Shown piece by piece: positions 1,611 through 38,140 of a stretch of DNA of 64,000 nt (positions are counted from its first letter, which is position 1; each line of letters starts with the position of its first letter). The DNA is from an uncultured Candidatus Saccharimonas sp. GTDB taxonomy: Bacteria > Patescibacteriota > Saccharimonadia > Saccharimonadales > Saccharimonadaceae. A program made the translations under genes and the position numbers. The stretch lies in the NCBI GenBank assembly GCA_964407205.1, contig CAYOUQ010000001.1, positions 29,425 to 93,424 on the forward strand, given 5' to 3'. The notes under the pieces are model-generated. The model saw only the letters and a list, made by a program, of their open reading frames with translations, was not told the origin of the DNA and ran no database searches.

Positions 1611-2633
1611 TTATATATTGCCTCCTGCGAGTGCCAAAATAATACCTATAAACGCTGCAACATCAGCAATTACCCAAAAACGCATTACAACTTTTGTCTC
1701 AGGCCAGCCTTTTGCCATTAGGTGTTGATGAAAAGGCGCCGAGATGAAAATCTTGCGATGAAACACTTTTTTACTAAAAATCTGAATCAAGCTTGATCCT
1801 GCTTCAGCCACAAATAGCACGCCAATAATAGGTATAAGGAATAAGGTGTTTGTTAACATCGCAACAACCCCCAAGGCAGTACCAATTGAAAAGCTGCCGA
1901 TATCGGTCATAAAAAACCTCGCTGGGAAAATATTAAACCATAGGTAGCTAAGTAAGGCACCGACTACAGTAAAACAGAAACCGGCCAACATATAATTACC
2001 TTGTAATATAGCGATGATCCCAAACGCGCCGAAGCTAATAGCCACTAGCCCACCTGCCAGGCCATCCAGACCATCACTAATATTTACAGCGTTACTGGTC
2101 GCGACGACTGCAAACGCAAAAACAGGAATTATCAACCAACCAAGATCAAAATTACCGATAAAAGGTATGTGTATAGACGAAAAGCCTAGTTTTGCGAAGA
2201 AAAACCAACCTAACGCTACACCTATTGCAACAATCATACTAAATTTCAAACTTGACCTAAGACCTGCAACACCACTGCCATCACCGCGTACATTTATTAT
2301 GTCATCAATTAATCCTACAATAGCTCCACCTATTAAAGCCGCGAGCGGTAGCCATGTTTGACCCCTGTCTAAGTTAAAAATGACCGTAACAGCAATTATC
2401 GAAATTACAAATATAATCCCCGCCCCGGCTGGGATATTTCTCTTAAACTTATCGGCATGAAGCTTATTAAACACCGTTAATTTCTCACCTGTGGTGCTGG
2501 TCGTTCTCTGCTTCTTCCAAAACTTATATTTATAAGCAAAGAATGTATAGACTGGCGTAATCATCATAGCCAGCACAAAAGCCCCAAAGCTTAGTAAAAA
2601 ATTTGATATTAGATTGCTTGTAATTCCGTCCAT
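1611..2633 (-). CDS. mraY: Phospho-N-acetylmuramoyl-pentapeptide transferase MraY
   Basis: 340-aa polytopic protein with the NAVNISDGLDGLAGG motif typical of MraY. dcw context. Confidence 0.92.
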   Translation of the reverse strand: MDGITSNLISNFLLSFGAFVLAMMITPVYTFFAYKYKFWKKQRTTSTTGEKLTVFNKLHADKFKRNIPAGAGIIFVISIIAVTVIFNLDRGQTWLPLAALIGGAIVGLIDDIINVRGDGSGVAGLRSSLKFSMIVAIGVALGWFFFAKLGFSSIHIPFIGNFDLGWLIIPVFAFAVVATSNAVNISDGLDGLAGGLVAISFGAFGIIAILQGNYMLAGFCFTVVGALLSYLWFNIFPARFFMTDIGSFSIGTALGVVAMLTNTLFLIPIIGVLFVAEAGSSLIQIFSKKVFHRKIFISAPFHQHLMAKGWPETKVVMRFWVIADVAAFIGIILALAGGNI

Positions 2634-2634
2634 A

Positions 2635-4371
2635 TTACCCCTTTGGTTGTATTTTTAAATAATCTAAAAGCCAGTTTGATATATCTGTAAAGATTGGGCC
2701 GGCATCTCGCGCACCATTAAGTGCTATACCATCGCCTGATATCCTTACCATTATGACATAACTCGATAGTTCTTCGCTACCGCCAAACCCTAAATATGTT
2801 GCGATCGTCTCGTCCTCGGAATATCCGCCATCTTTAAAAACCTGTGAAGTGCCTGTTTTGCCACCAATGTAGTAACCAGGCTTATCATATGGAGCAGCCG
2901 ACTTTCTGACCGCTTCGACCATTTGACGAATCTGGTTTGCCGTATTCTCAGAAACTGTCTGTGTTGGATCTGAGATTTTGTTCGATATGTAGTCACCATT
3001 TTTATCAACAACACCTGCCAAAACAGTTGGTTTATAATATTTTCCCCCGTTGACTAATGAACAGAATGCCGATGCAACCTGAACCATTGTGGCATCCATT
3101 CCCTGCCCAAAAGCCATGTTCGAATATCGCACAGCGTTGCCCTCAACCTCAGTAGGAGGAATAATCGTTCCGGGTACTTCACCAAAAATTTCGATACCGG
3201 TTATACTCCCCAGATGAAATTTATTATGAAAATAGTCAAACATAGTATCACGTGCGCCACGAGTAATATTTGAGCCATCACCTAGCCTTTGGGCCACGGT
3301 TACAAATCCGGTATTTAGAGACCAATTTAATGCATGTTGGAATGTTATTTCGCCTGTTTGGCCAGTCGAGGCATTAACGATAACCCTATCATCCACCTCT
3401 ATGTAATCGTAGTTATAGTATGTAGCTGTCGGGCTAACCACGCCTTTATCTATGCCCGTCGCCATTGTCAGTGTCTTTAAATCTGAACCTGGCTCATATG
3501 GCGAGGATACGATTGGATTATTAAATAATGCCACGTCAGTAACCTTGTTATATTCAGCTTGATTATAGGTTGGCAAGCTAGCCATTGCTATAACCTTCCC
3601 TGACTGCGGATCCATAACGATTGCGCTGGCATTATCGCCACCAGTCCTATCTAGACCGTCTGCTATCGCCTTTTCAACATAAGATTGGATATTTCTATCT
3701 ATCGACAAGACTATATTTTTTCCATCAACTGCTGGTTTATTTATGTTATTTTTTCCAATAGTCAACGGGACATCTCTTACGTCAGTAACCGATTGAAGTA
3801 AACCGTCCGTGCCCGTCAGCTCGTCGTCAAGATACCCTTCAACACCATAACGACCAACACCGTCAAAATCAACAAACCCAAGCGTCTGAGAGGCTAAGGC
3901 GCCTTCTGGGTATACTCTTTGAGTCCCCTCCTGAAAGCCGACGCCACTAAGTTTTTCTTTCTTAATCATTTCAGCTTGTGTTCGAGTAATTCGGGTTGCT
4001 AATATTTGATATCGGCTGTCTTTCTTGTCTAATAATATCTGAAAATCAGCTCTTGCATTACCCCCCGCTACTCTTTTAATTACTTCGATAATCTTCTTAT
4101 CATCTTTTGTAATCTGTGGGTCGGCAAAGACAGTGTATATTGTTTGATTTAATGCCAATGGAACTGGTGTCAAATTATCAAGCGCATAAATAACCCCGCG
4201 TTTTGCGGGAATAGTTAAACGCTTAATCTGTTCTTTGTTAGCTAGTTCGACATAAAAGTCGTGTTGGATAATTTGCAAATAAAATAGCCTTGCAATAAAA
4301 ACGGTCATAATTATAATGACCAGACACGATAATACTTTTGATCGGCTTCCTCTTTGTAGTTCTAGCTTCAT
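2635..4371 (-). CDS. ftsI: Class B penicillin-binding protein (FtsI/PBP2-type transpeptidase)
   Basis: N-terminal membrane anchor plus the transpeptidase motifs SxxK (SDLK), SxN (SLN) and KTG (GGKTGTS). dcw position. Confidence 0.88.
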   Translation of the reverse strand: MKLELQRGSRSKVLSCLVIIIMTVFIARLFYLQIIQHDFYVELANKEQIKRLTIPAKRGVIYALDNLTPVPLALNQTIYTVFADPQITKDDKKIIEVIKRVAGGNARADFQILLDKKDSRYQILATRITRTQAEMIKKEKLSGVGFQEGTQRVYPEGALASQTLGFVDFDGVGRYGVEGYLDDELTGTDGLLQSVTDVRDVPLTIGKNNINKPAVDGKNIVLSIDRNIQSYVEKAIADGLDRTGGDNASAIVMDPQSGKVIAMASLPTYNQAEYNKVTDVALFNNPIVSSPYEPGSDLKTLTMATGIDKGVVSPTATYYNYDYIEVDDRVIVNASTGQTGEITFQHALNWSLNTGFVTVAQRLGDGSNITRGARDTMFDYFHNKFHLGSITGIEIFGEVPGTIIPPTEVEGNAVRYSNMAFGQGMDATMVQVASAFCSLVNGGKYYKPTVLAGVVDKNGDYISNKISDPTQTVSENTANQIRQMVEAVRKSAAPYDKPGYYIGGKTGTSQVFKDGGYSEDETIATYLGFGGSEELSSYVIMVRISGDGIALNGARDAGPIFTDISNWLLDYLKIQPKG

Positions 4372-34518: not shown

Positions 34519-34575
34519 CCCCTACACTTTACGTTCCTCCGCCCTATGAGCCAAGCGGCATAAAGTTAATATTGG

Positions 34576-34625
34576 TATTACTACCAGCTCTACCGATATA
34601 TCTATCGACAGAACTGGTAGTAATA
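34576..34625. repeat. Strong hairpin (12-bp outer stem plus 5-bp inner stem) in the leader of the 207-aa gene
   Basis: TATTACTACCAG (34576-34587) pairs with CTGGTAGTAATA (34614-34625). The inner stem is CGATA/TATCG. Confidence 0.7.
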
Positions 34626-34723
34626 TTTTTAACACGGCCAAATTGTTAATGTACGACATTGCACATCAATAGCCCCACCTGCTAATAGAGTAATATTATC
34701 ACCTTCTTTAAAAAAATCAATCA

Positions 34724-34750
34724 AATAAAAAAGCCCGTTTCGTGGGCTAG
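34724..34750 (-). terminator. Probable terminator after the DUF1874 gene
   Basis: On the minus strand: AGCCC-acgaaac-GGGCU followed by UUUUUUAUUU. Confidence 0.5.
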
Positions 34751-34849
34751 ACGGTTTTTATATCGCAAAAACTGCGGCTCAATTCTATCTGTAGAGCGAC
34801 AGGTTCGGTACTAAATTTTTTTCCTAGGTCGATAGCTAGACCACCGAGT

Positions 34850-35193
34850 CTACGCAGACAAATCGTCAATATTGACGATTCGAACGCGCCAGAACTCGAT
34901 CTTTGCCCCCTCGGGCAGTTCGGTTGCGCCTTCAGGCAGACGCGGCCCCGAATATTGGGCTACGTACAACTCGTCACCTTCGTCTAAAACGAGCGTCTGC
35001 CTGTTGATTGCGACTTCTCTGCCAAGGACGCGGGACACGACACGCGCCGTGTCGCTGTGACCGATAATGCTGATGCAGTCTTCGGGCACTGATTCGGGGA
35101 TTATCCGACGCATAGTGATACGTCTGTCAGGCGAAGGTCCATACCCTCCTCCAGCATGTTGATCGAAAACGCGTTTCCCAGATACTTTGACAT
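34850..35193 (-). pseudogene. DUF1874 (AcrIII-1/Crn2, STIV B116/YddF-like) cyclic tetra-adenylate ring nuclease gene, split by a frameshift near 35104-35115
   Basis: The ATG at 35193 (SD GGAGGTG) gives MSKYLGNAFSINMLEEGMDLRLTDVSLCVG, ending at the TAA at 35103-35101. A second frame from 35113 gives RRIIPESVPEDCISIIGHSDTARVVSRVLG...GPRLPEGATELPEGAKIEFWRV. Together these carry the DUF1874 hallmarks NAFSxNML, GHxxTA and RxxEG. Confidence 0.75.
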
Positions 35194-35347
35194 ATTATTC
35201 ACCTCCTATGGGCAATCGCCATATGTCACAGCGGTATCGGCTGAGGTTTTACCTCTTTTGGCCAACCAATTTATTTTGGTTTCGGTTTTATCCGAAGATA
35301 CTAGATTTTTTCGGTGTCTTACCACTCAAACTGATAATTTCTCATTA

Positions 35348-35534
35348 AAATGGTTCGCTTGACGCACGAACCTTGAGAGTGGTTAAACTCAGCGGCCCTA
35401 CTCTTACGGACTTAGGGGCTTTTCCGGCGGCCGGTGGGTGTTTAGAGTGGAGTCGGTTTTCCTATCTCGGTTTTACGGTGAACAAAATCACTCAACGCTA
35501 ACTCCGGTTTATATGATCGCCCGTGCAGCCAGCA
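35348..35534 (-). ncRNA. Candidate structured sRNA or 5' leader domain (family unknown)
   Basis: It starts about 7 nt after the 35541-35569 promoter and is G+C-rich, with stops in all frames. It ends in the hairpin GGUUCG-ugcgucaag-CGAACC (35372-35352) followed by AUUUUAAU. Confidence 0.3.
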
Positions 35535-35540
35535 CTGATA

Positions 35541-35569
35541 ATTATCACATCTAGTTCTGAATACGTCAA
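35541..35569 (-). promoter_or_regulatory. Sigma-70-type promoter driving the long leader or sRNA upstream of the DUF1874 gene
   Basis: On the minus strand: TTGACG (35569-35564), a 17-nt spacer, then GATAAT (35546-35541). Confidence 0.55.
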
Positions 35570-35631
35570 TTTTGTGCTTACACAATTGTATTTTACAGGG
35601 GTGGAAAAAGTAAAGTTTTGTCAATTCGGTT

Positions 35632-35660
35632 TTGACATTGTTTAATATCTGTGCTATACT
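35632..35660 (+). promoter_or_regulatory. Sigma-70-type promoter of the TrmB-like gene (predicts a leaderless mRNA)
   Basis: TTGACA (35632-35637), a 17-nt spacer, then TATACT (35655-35660). The ATG at 35668 is 7 nt after the -10 box and has no SD. Confidence 0.55.
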
Positions 35661-35667
35661 GCCAAGC

Positions 35668-36402
35668 ATGAACATCGATATATTGCTAAAAATAGGCCTT
35701 ACCGAAAGCCAAGCAAAAGGCTATTTGGCGTTAGTTGAATTTGGCCCACTAACTCCATCCGATATTGCCGACAAAACTGGCGAAGCCAGAACTAATGGAT
35801 ACGCCATATCAGATAAATTAGTCGAGTTGGGGCTAGCTCGAAGGACCAACAGTATAAAGTTAAAGATTGAGGCTGAAAATCCTACAAAAATTCGTTCATT
35901 AATATCATCTCGTCAGCAACAATTAAAAACTGTAAGTGACGAGTTTTCAGCGATTTTGCCTAGCTTTTTATCAAAATTCAGGCTTACCAGCGACCAACCG
36001 GGCGTCATAAATGCCGAAGGCGTCGAAGCGCTAAAGTTAGTCTACGACGAGATTATCGCTACAAAAAAGGACGTCTTGATATTCCCTAGCAACCATGACC
36101 GCGACGATCCAAGAATTTCTGCATTAATCGACCAACAGATTGCGAGGCAGCGCGATGCGGGAATTAAATCATTAGCGCTCATACCGGCCGATCAGTATGA
36201 CTTGGTCAAAGACCAACAAGACGGCCTATTATCTATGCGAAAACTTCCCGATGGCGTGTTCTTTGATGCTCAAATTATGGTATTTGGCAATAATATCGTG
36301 TCGACTGTATTTAGGCACGGAATTGTTAGTACTATCATCTCTAGCCCCGATACCGCTGCCACTATGCGTAATATTTTCTTTGCTATTTGGGATAGACGTT
36401 AG
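35668..36402 (+). CDS. TrmB-family winged-helix transcriptional regulator
   Basis: MNIDILLKIGLTESQAKGYLALVEFGPLTPSDIADKTGEARTNGYAISDKLVELGLA is a TrmB-type wHTH. The start is set at ATG 35668, because the ORF-track start at 35632 lies inside the predicted promoter. Confidence 0.75.
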   Translation: MNIDILLKIGLTESQAKGYLALVEFGPLTPSDIADKTGEARTNGYAISDKLVELGLARRTNSIKLKIEAENPTKIRSLISSRQQQLKTVSDEFSAILPSFLSKFRLTSDQPGVINAEGVEALKLVYDEIIATKKDVLIFPSNHDRDDPRISALIDQQIARQRDAGIKSLALIPADQYDLVKDQQDGLLSMRKLPDGVFFDAQIMVFGNNIVSTVFRHGIVSTIISSPDTAATMRNIFFAIWDRR

Positions 36403-38140
36403 TATCCAGGCCTAACCTTTCTCCAAACTTCTTGATAATTTTATTCATAAAATCTTCTGTATTAATTATGGTAGCACCATTTTGGTCCTTAAATATATCA
36501 AAAGCTTCTGCGCTATGATGGCCCAAAACAGCCTTACCGTTAATAATCTGTTCTCCCTTTTCCAACATATCACATACAAAAAAGCCTACTTTTGAAGCAT
36601 TTACATAGCCTTCTTTTGTTTCACCCTTTTGTTTTTCAACCTTTTTACTCCCAATATCCAGTGATAAGCCGTAGGTTATATCATAGTCTAATCTAATATT
36701 TAAAATATTTTCTCTATTTTCTTCTGATTGACCTTGTGGAATCATCCCCGCTGGAATTGGAATGTTAAATGCAATTCGTTGATTGGACCCAAACAACGAG
36801 TCGGCAGTCCTTAGGCCCATCCATAAACCTTCTGACTTGTCGTCAGTAGATTTGAATGATTGGCTAACAACCTGGCCATACAGCCCGTATTCTTCGTTAT
36901 TCAATGGCTGAAACTGACCAGAAACTAATGACTTAGCAACTTTTTCGCTCGCAAATCGTAAAATGTTGATTACCGAAATAGCACTCTCTATCTCTTCGCT
37001 TGACGACTCGTCACTTGAAATAACCGCCAAAAGCTCGGTCGTTCTTTTTAGCCATGCGGTATACACTGCAGTATCAAAATGGTCGACAGTGTCCTTAAAG
37101 TACTTTGAAATGTCGACGGCTGACTGACGAATACTATTGATGCTTTTAAATATCTCGAGCGCCCTTGGTTTTTCTAATTTTTCAGCGATATGTAACAGTT
37201 TATCGCCAAAATGGTCACCAAACTCAAGCGAAAGAAAAGAATTGATCAACTCGACCTTTTCACTGTCATCACCATATTCTAGAAGATGCTTTTTTAATTT
37301 GCCATACCTTGAATCATCTGCTTCAATTGCAAAATTCAAAAAACGTAACTGGCTATTTAGTGGGATTTTACTGATATCAACACCAAGTTCTGATATAAAT
37401 ATATTCTTTGTCCTCGTATTGTGAACTATTCTCAATAATCTTGAATCCTGTAGCGAAAGTCCAAAACTGTTTTCGGGTTGCCATTCTGCAACTGATGCCT
37501 CACGCCCGTTCCTGTCAAAAATTTTATTTGGGCAGCGATCGACAATATTTATCTCAGCACAAACACCTGGTGCAATTTCTGAATAGCGTGCCGTCATATA
37601 GGGAGGCGCGTTCAATATTTTATACTTTTTCATAGCCCTCTCACTTTCGTCCAACTCACTCTTAAGGTAAGATAAATAGCCATCCGCCCCATCGTTATTC
37701 AACTTTTTATAACCCTCAGACTGATCGCCAATGTTATCGCCAAAGCTTGTTCTGTTTTGAGGCTTTAATGAGTAATTTAACGCAACATTTCGCTTATGAA
37801 GTTCGTTTCTATCTCGTAAGTTCTGTACCCTACTCTTGAATATAGCCCTGAATAAAACCGGAATATCTTGTGCGTTTGAGGCGTATTCAAGTTTGTCAAC
37901 ATAATTATTAAAGCCTTCATCATCACCAGTTGTAATAAAAAAATACCCATCTCTCTCGGCAGCCATTGCTTGGTTTAATACATATACGGCTGAATCATCA
38001 TCACTATCACCATTAAAAGACTTATAATAATTCGATGCCAGTTCAGAGTCGCGCCCTATCTTCTCTTTTGCTTGTTTCTGCAGTGTATATGGCACATTCT
38101 GTCCATTATCCCCGGTTGTTTCTATTATTCTGCTCTTCAT
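36383..38140 (-). CDS. Orphan hypothetical protein (585 aa)
   Basis: Long uninterrupted ORF starting 9 nt after the serS stop. No TM segment, P-loop or other motif recognised. Its 3' end overlaps the convergent TrmB-like gene by 20 nt. Confidence 0.6.
   Translation of the reverse strand: MKSRIIETTGDNGQNVPYTLQKQAKEKIGRDSELASNYYKSFNGDSDDDSAVYVLNQAMAAERDGYFFITTGDDEGFNNYVDKLEYASNAQDIPVLFRAIFKSRVQNLRDRNELHKRNVALNYSLKPQNRTSFGDNIGDQSEGYKKLNNDGADGYLSYLKSELDESERAMKKYKILNAPPYMTARYSEIAPGVCAEINIVDRCPNKIFDRNGREASVAEWQPENSFGLSLQDSRLLRIVHNTRTKNIFISELGVDISKIPLNSQLRFLNFAIEADDSRYGKLKKHLLEYGDDSEKVELINSFLSLEFGDHFGDKLLHIAEKLEKPRALEIFKSINSIRQSAVDISKYFKDTVDHFDTAVYTAWLKRTTELLAVISSDESSSEEIESAISVINILRFASEKVAKSLVSGQFQPLNNEEYGLYGQVVSQSFKSTDDKSEGLWMGLRTADSLFGSNQRIAFNIPIPAGMIPQGQSEENRENILNIRLDYDITYGLSLDIGSKKVEKQKGETKEGYVNASKVGFFVCDMLEKGEQIINGKAVLGHHSAEAFDIFKDQNGATIINTEDFMNKIIKKFGERLGLDTNVYPK

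Follow-up and report, generated by a model that had tools for sequence, protein, structure and literature searches.

An uncatalogued non-coding RNA leader ahead of a DUF1874 gene in an uncultured Candidatus Saccharimonas: conservation, predicted fold and a possible role in gating read-through

Genes are closely packed in the window, by which is meant the whole stretch of DNA analysed here (64 kb from an uncultured Candidatus Saccharimonas sp.): when ORFs of at least 80 aa are taken as genes, the median gap between them is 24 nt. One gap, however, measures 518 nt and is the longest in the window. It contains a stretch on the minus strand, positions 35194-35540, which precedes a gene of the DUF1874 family, and the question that this locus raises is what such a long stretch without an obvious gene does there. 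The initial annotation had remarked on the unusual length, which the gap comparison bears out, and had proposed a structured small RNA (sRNA) or a riboregulatory leader behind a consensus promoter. What stands of this proposal is that the stretch is non-coding, is conserved at the nucleotide level and has a good promoter, whereas covariation, for which two sequences were available, is not significant.

Several details of the first description were recovered. All six frames are stop-rich, with 3-15 stops per frame, and both sequence reading and a promoter scan find the minus-strand TTGACG-17-GATAAT promoter at 35569-35541, which agrees with the consensus at 10 of 12 positions and carries an extended TG immediately before the -10 element. 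A core rich in G+C is there as described, and so is the CCACUCU box, which occurs twice (35450-35444 and about 35382-35376). The stretch consists of two parts, a 198-nt 5' domain and a 3' linker of about 150 nt (Table 1), and the G+C content of the leader and the DUF1874 gene is 50-55% against 41% for the genome. The linker carries two hairpins, UUCGG-AUAAAA-CCGAA (35296-35281) and GAGGU-AAA-ACCUC (35255-35243), a Shine-Dalgarno (SD) sequence, GGAGGUG (35206-35200), and an upstream ORF (uORF) encoding MAIAHRR. This seven-codon uORF does exist, but it lies at 35222-35199, about 9 nt away from the position first assigned to it (35231-35208). The inverted repeat between the divergent promoters is presumably the operator of the TrmB-like regulator encoded on the opposite strand.

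Rfam 15 gave no match at the gathering threshold over the whole window, and with E values up to 10 the interval 34600-35800 gave one chance match, which lies outside the flagged region; moreover, ARAGORN found no tRNA or tmRNA. These blank scans agree with the earlier failure to recognize a tmRNA, RNase P, SRP, 6S or riboswitch sequence. No catalogued RNA family was thus matched. The stretch itself is genuine and non-coding, and we read it as a putative RNA leader, the transcription of which is predicted from the sequence.

Table 1. Features of the leader locus (window positions; nt, numbering along the predicted RNA) and nucleotide identity between the window and G031, the relative used for comparison
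Feature	Positions	Strand	Basis or remark	Identity to G031
Divergent TrmB-like wHTH regulator gene	35668..36402	+	PF01978, E 2.3e-9	91%
Inverted repeat TGTCAA-N7-TTGACA, between divergent promoters	35619..35637	.	Read from sequence	
Region upstream of -35 box				70.5%
Sigma-70-type promoter TTGACG-17-(TG)TGATAAT	35541..35569	-	Promoter scan; kept in G031; proposed driver of leader	86%
Conserved 5' RNA domain, 198 nt, 50.5% G+C	35343..35540	-	Transcription start to hairpin tail; identity to G031	92.5% (14 substitutions and 1 indel in 198 nt)
P1, long 5' hairpin, nt 3-49	35492..35538	-	MFE and folds of growing 5' prefixes	
P2, hairpin GUGA-UUUUGU-UCAC, nt 50-63	35478..35491	-	Compensatory A-U to G-C in G031	
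Putative antiterminator arm CCGUAAAACC, nt 63-72	35469..35478	-	Fold of 182-nt prefix; fold with P7 3' arm blocked	
A/C-rich, mostly unpaired stretch with CCGAGAUAGGAAAACCGAC and first CCACUCU box	35435..35477	-	Predicted largely single-stranded	2 substitutions in 43 nt
G+C-rich core, three hairpins P4-P6, nt 107-164	35377..35434	-	MFE	
P7, terminator-like hairpin, 7 bp, nt 169-189, with tail AUUUUAAU	35344..35372	-	Terminator scan; conservation boundary	
Less conserved 3' linker, 39.6% G+C	35194..35342	-		76.9% (8 gap columns; 34 withheld N in G031)
DUF1874 / STIV_B116-like (AcrIII-1/Crn2 family) gene	34850..35193	-	PF08960	84.6% (CDS)
3' cassette tag, GGUCUAGCUAUCGAC (34842-34828) and GCUCUACAGAUAGAAUUGAGC (34797-34777)	34777..34842	-	Common to G031, L030, L035, L046	
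Intrinsic terminator, end of DUF1874 transcript	34732..34748	-	Terminator scan; conserved in G031	

Conservation and coding potential of the stretch

The sole relative in the comparisons is G031, an uncultured Ca. Saccharimonas MAG (contig CAZCIE010000082.1), and the initial annotation's expectation that relatives should keep the element holds for the 5' domain in this one genome. Between the two genomes, synonymous changes in the neighbouring genes approach saturation, with dS values of 1.11 for the TrmB-like gene (dN/dS 0.05), 1.13 for a gene of 585 aa (dN/dS 0.05) and 0.66 for the C-terminal piece of DUF1874 (dN/dS 0.08). Because the 5' domain is 92.5% identical while dS in the flanks is 0.66-1.13, synonymous sites change about 9-15 times as fast as it does, and the surrounding proteins also change faster. 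Judged from this alignment, the sequence of the 5' domain is evidently under strong selection.

A protein might be the object of this selection. A six-frame Pfam search of the flagged stretch gave no match, so that a protein remnant, which the initial annotation had kept in view as a competing reading, is rejected. The frame of a 42-aa antisense ORF differs in G031 owing to an indel. Two sense ORFs are open in both genomes, one of 17 codons at 35495-35442, which has a UUG start and GGAG 6 nt upstream, and one of 39 codons in the linker (35325-35206). In the former three of the four changed codons are non-synonymous and the central 33 nt are invariant, third positions included; in the latter none of the four clean changes is synonymous, and the frame is shifted locally by two indels, of +2 and +1. 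Seven of the eight changed codons in the two ORFs, as read from the alignments, are accordingly non-synonymous, and the small ORFs were rejected as the reason for conservation on this substitution pattern. The pattern indicates that the constraint on the 5' domain is at the level of nucleotides and not of a protein.

These observations also bear on the view that no functional RNA is made and that the locus is conserved as DNA, for example as a protein platform or a recombination site, or is a decayed gene or the carrier of a small peptide. Such an origin seems unlikely: 198 nt far exceed the length of an operator, though the domain does adjoin an operator and a regulator gene; the codon changes in the small ORFs are almost all non-synonymous, and the 33 nt are invariant at third positions too, though both ORFs have stayed open; the six-frame Pfam search found nothing; and a decaying remnant would not outdo the conservation of a gene with a dN/dS of 0.08. 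Changes in the hairpin P1 that preserve wobble pairs are, moreover, specific to one strand, as described below. In favour of such an origin, the G+C-rich patch suggests imported DNA.

Predicted fold, the terminator-like hairpin and possible read-through

A multi-hairpin structure of the 5' domain is plausible on fold predictions. In P1, three Cs that face G are replaced by U in G031, so that pairing is retained only on the transcribed strand. In the core, P4 is CCGG-CCG-CCGG, P5 is formed by AGCCCCUA and UAGGGCCGCU and keeps a GNRA-type loop (GUAA/GCAA), and P6 is GAGU-UUAACC-ACUC, a U-A pair of which has become C-G in G031 by compensatory change. None of the pairs of a 46-pair fold, curated post hoc, is broken by the 15 differences from G031, the others of which fall in loops; in the unedited MFE fold of the window sequence (54 pairs) two pairs are broken, a result which random substitutions equal in 10% of trials. 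The covariation analysis that had been suggested at the outset yields two compensatory pairs (P2 and P6) from two sequences, with P about 0.1, which is not significant. Folding energy gives a z score of -2.45 when all 347 nt are taken, but the 5' domain is ordinary in this respect, the first 201 nt scoring -0.13. A pairing of nt 56-64 with the SD, seen in the full-length MFE, was rejected, as its partners are not conserved in G031.

The domain ends in the hairpin P7. The terminator scan found the hairpin GGUUCGU-loop-GCGAACC at 35372-35352 with a U-containing tail (AUUUUAAU, 35351-35344), as first described, and its nomination as a candidate 3' end is strengthened by a sharp conservation boundary, identity being 92.5% upstream and 77% downstream. 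P7 has a predicted dG of -8.6 kcal/mol and a pairing probability above 0.95, and G031 does not differ in the 39 nt around it. With 7 bp, four G-C pairs and the tail ATTTTAATGA, it counts as an intrinsic terminator under the rule of the scan (5 T in 8). It is weaker, however, than the DUF1874 gene's own terminator (GGGCTTTTTTATTT), and its U tract is short. The promoter scan found no promoter-like site between P7 and the DUF1874 ATG, and therefore DUF1874 would be expressed only by read-through.

Folding of RNA prefixes gives an alternative to P7. Before the 3' arm of P7 is transcribed, the predicted partner of its 5' arm, GGUUCGUGCG (35372-35363), is CCGUAAAACC, and this helix closes a domain of nt 73-168. 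Both arms of the helix, a putative antiterminator, are invariant in G031. On these models, alternative helices arranged in this way would be typical of transcriptional riboswitches of the ON type or of antiterminators that depend on a protein. Further downstream, the ACCUC of the linker hairpin at 35255-35243 has two potential partners, the GAGGU within that hairpin and the one in the SD, both of which are conserved in G031.

The reading that we prefer, with a probability of roughly 0.4, is that the stretch is a cis-acting leader which, through a conditional terminator, controls whether transcription continues into the ring-nuclease gene, DUF1874 (AcrIII-1/Crn2). Transcription would start at the promoter at 35569-35541, under a palindromic operator shared with the divergent TrmB-like gene, and the first 190 nt or so would fold into P1, P2, the A/C-rich single strand and P4-P6, followed by the terminator-like hairpin at 35372-35344. 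By default P7 would stop or pause most transcripts and give an RNA of about 190 nt. A small ligand or a protein may stabilize the CCGUAAAACC/GGUUCGUGCG helix and thereby sequester the 5' arm of the terminator, in which case the polymerase would read through the linker of about 150 nt into the DUF1874 gene; the choice of the linker ACCUC between the decoy GAGGU and the SD could add translational control. What we infer here is that transcription takes place and terminates at P7, that the antiterminator forms, that a ligand may be involved and which way regulation goes. The promoter and P7, both found by scans, the slow change of the non-coding 5' domain, the fit of its substitutions to the curated fold and the predicted alternative helix speak for this model, and the ordinary folding energy of the 5' domain, the two pairs broken in the unedited fold, the short U tract, the invariance of the antiterminator arms, the frameshift of the gene in its own genome and the number of sequences, namely two, speak against it.

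In its layout, which is a promoter, a multi-hairpin domain of about 170 nt, a terminator-like hairpin and a gene, the leader resembles transcription-attenuating riboswitches and protein-dependent leaders, for example the cyclic-dinucleotide riboswitches whose expression platform is a terminator, and it likewise has a predicted closing helix that competes with the 5' arm of the terminator. It differs from them in that there is no Rfam match up to an E value of 10, in that two sequences represent it and in that a linker of about 150 nt precedes the start codon.

The same hairpin may, however, be the end of a stand-alone, trans-acting sRNA of about 185-195 nt, which would begin at the transcription start, end with the hairpin (35352-35344) and bind a target RNA or protein through its A/C-rich single strand, read-through into DUF1874 being incidental. 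This is the main rival, though less likely than the leader, and the two functions may coexist in one RNA. It would explain why conservation drops to 76.9% past P7 and why the 5' domain is better conserved than the downstream CDS and remains intact though DUF1874 is frameshifted in its own genome, and the 43-nt stretch, nearly invariant and mostly unpaired, would suit target binding as the terminator-like score of P7 and its U-containing tail would suit a 3' end. Against this, DUF1874 has no second promoter, the U tract is weak, no target can be proposed and the RNA occurs only where DUF1874 occurs.

Distribution of the RNA and a slot under putative TrmB control

The leader is single-copy in its own genome (639 kb, 82.7% complete; BLAST with a 387-nt query, and CM) and was found in two of the 62 genus genomes, its own and G031, being absent from the other 60. 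PF08960, the Pfam family of the DUF1874 gene, occurs in exactly the same two genomes, a linkage that favours the leader model. In wider searches, a 20-mer from the most conserved stretch, searched in one genome per species across 185,579 species, hit only G031; a 19-mer gave five chance matches in the JGI metagenomes, none extending past the 19-mer; and nothing was found with two core patterns in IMG/VR or by blastn against phage and plasmid records. The upstream regions of DUF1874 homologues (L004-L012 and L041-L044) are unrelated, those of the closest homologues (49-55% identical) included, which counts against the leader model.

A structured non-coding element in the 5' UTRs of genes that include DUF1874 has been described, the DUF1874 RNA motif (Weinberg et al. 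2017, PMC5737381), which recurs in consecutive intergenic regions like attC sites. The element in the window does not recur in this manner: it is single-copy, and the next gap (34519-34849) has no similar element.

Two side observations concern other DUF1874 genes. On a phage-like contig with an SSB gene and many small genes (L042), a 570-nt hairpin-rich non-coding stretch of moderate G+C content precedes another DUF1874 gene (1931-2501, plus strand); it does not resemble the window RNA, and no Rfam family matches it significantly. Furthermore, two DUF1874 genes in unrelated contexts (L004 and L011, both at 2915-3000, plus strand) have a common promoter and leader, consisting of TATGTAAA-TATAATATA-TTGTTCGAAA, then UGUAAGNCCA, a hairpin, and UGGCA before the SD, and the heptamer UAAGUCC of this leader is also found in the P5 loop of the window RNA.

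Relatives of the TrmB-like regulator place the leader in a wider setting. Homologues with 60-78% identity were examined on seven groups of metagenomic contigs, and in six of them the gene faces 360-990 nt of divergent non-coding DNA (in L045 about 160 nt of upstream sequence are on the contig). The window and these loci have in common a leaderless TrmB promoter, a CCCCTGTTAAA box and a promoter TATTGACA-17-GATAAT, and the palindrome TTGTCAAA-N7-TTTTGACA, likewise in common with the window, is kept in L030, L032, L034, L035, L046 and L047. Homology to the window ends at the -10 box. Behind the divergent promoter, a different structured RNA, called R2 here, is found in L030, L032, L035, L046 and L047 and in one genus genome, G030, at L030:1318-1496(-), L032:2508-2683(-), L035:2483-2656(-), L046:462-634(-), L047:97-270(-) and L016:2599-2712(+). 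R2 is about 400 nt long in all, and its 3' domain has two hairpins with an invariant YUGACC loop. Compensatory changes are seen in 18 of 34 pairs, and R2 has no match in Rfam. L034 has neither R2 nor the leader RNA of the window (R1).

R2 and R1 share position, orientation, promoter and operator, a variable cargo downstream and the 3' tag, but homology between them is not detectable and was rejected. A covariance model made from five R2 sequences (hairpin A plus hairpin B, the latter with the YUGACC loop) scored at best 2.0 bits (E 2.2) on 34700-35700 with filters off, whereas true members score 75-113 bits, and an R1 model found no match on the R2 loci. That related TrmB loci, too, put a long structured RNA behind an equivalent promoter is a further point for the leader model.

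The cargo genes of these loci are mutually unrelated and encode DUF1874 and proteins of 340, 203, 105, 184 and 279+ aa. A short tag nevertheless follows them. It starts 8 nt past the DUF1874 stop in the window and lies elsewhere shortly past the stops of non-homologous cargo genes (L002 2268-2324; L030 about 115-160; L035 about 1470; L046 about 220), and its consensus in the window, G031, L030, L035 and L046 is GGUCUAGCU(A/C)U(C/U)GAC followed by AAUUGAGC. Judged by the comparison of loci, the promoter and the 3' tag frame a swappable cassette, and the leader sits in a conserved expression slot.

It could be asked whether the leader acts together with the tag at 34842-34777, by end-to-end pairing or in the processing or recombination of swappable cassettes, a role which R2-type RNA may play in the related loci. 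The conservation of promoter and operator on one side and of the tag GGUCUAGCUNUCGAC...AAUUGAGC on the other, around non-homologous cargo, suggests the idea, and R2 has loops with UUGAGAG or UCGAGAG, which are complementary to CUCUCGA of the tag, just as the window RNA has GAUAG where the tag has CUAUC. We consider it improbable. Leader-to-tag pairing in the window was rejected, as the best duplex was equalled or beaten by 220 of 300 shuffled tags; a 5-nt match arises by chance in about one-fifth of 200-nt RNAs; no integrase or recombinase was seen nearby; and the tag is single-copy in the genome.

In most of these loci a large orphan protein of 585-733 aa is encoded convergently to the TrmB gene. 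In the window it has 585 aa (36383-38140, minus strand), and homologues are placed likewise in L016, L030, L034 and L035. The family comprises 460 representative homologues. The window protein matched nothing in Pfam, PADLOC or PHROGs, its AF2 model is poor (pLDDT 58.7) and gave no PDB fold match, and ten long homologues have no informative Pfam domain. PADLOC and PHROGs also gave nothing for ten neighbouring or cargo proteins.

The recurrent arrangement consists of a TrmB-type regulator, a conserved promoter, an interchangeable structured RNA, an interchangeable cargo and a conserved 3' tag, and it looks like a dedicated slot for the expression or exchange of accessory genes. Neither of the RNAs in this slot, R1 or R2, is catalogued.

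The DUF1874 gene and its CRISPR context

The gene behind the leader matches PF08960 with E 3.8e-8 and 33.8 bits, the curated cut-off being 26, and its PDB matches are 2x4i, 6scf and 2j85 (E 7e-9 to 4e-7). Its nearest solved relatives are SIRV1 ORF114/gp29 (2x4i, 6scf) and STIV B116. AcrIII-1/Crn2 is described as a family of cA4 ring nucleases (10.1101/778746). By these matches the gene is a member of the AcrIII-1/Crn2 family, and ring-nuclease activity is predicted for its product. In the window a deletion of 1 nt (35101-35113, minus strand) interrupts its frame, whereas the copy in G031 is intact with 117 aa; with a dN/dS of 0.08 between the copies, either the assembly is in error or the gene has become a pseudogene very recently. 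The second long gap, between the DUF1874 terminator and a 207-aa orphan gene (34519-34849, minus strand, 331 nt), contains a hairpin with 23-nt arms at 34576-34625 and has no similarity to R1, R2 or the tag.

In acr-aca operons, an anti-CRISPR gene has a strong promoter repressed by an adjacent HTH protein. The window likewise has an HTH regulator and a palindromic operator adjoining an AcrIII-1-family gene. It differs in that the regulator is a divergent wHTH protein of the TrmB family and not a downstream Aca, in that a long conserved leader lies between, and in that repression is putative.

Searches for a CRISPR system found no Csm1-type Cas10 in the 62 genus genomes and, in the 82.7%-complete own genome, no Cmr2, no Cas1 and, by a k-mer scan, no CRISPR array. 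An RNA anti-CRISPR, that is, a solitary repeat mimic, finds no support in this genome: neither a CRISPR array nor Cas1 or Cas10 was found in its 82.7%-complete sequence, which leaves no repeat to mimic there. A cA4 ring-nuclease gene in a tiny-genome lineage of Saccharibacteria in which no type III CRISPR was detected is odd in itself.

The 5' domain might even be a riboswitch for cyclic oligoadenylate or a related defence signal, which would turn on the ring nuclease only in the presence of the signal. This is a very long shot, the sole argument for it being the identity of the gene behind the leader. If true, it would be the first RNA sensor of a type III CRISPR second messenger, and in an epibiont without a type III system of its own. 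To return to the proposed leader, a dedicated and strongly conserved RNA ahead of a ring-nuclease gene suggests tightly gated expression, and if this leader senses a signal, it would give a handle on when the epibiont deploys an anti-signalling enzyme.
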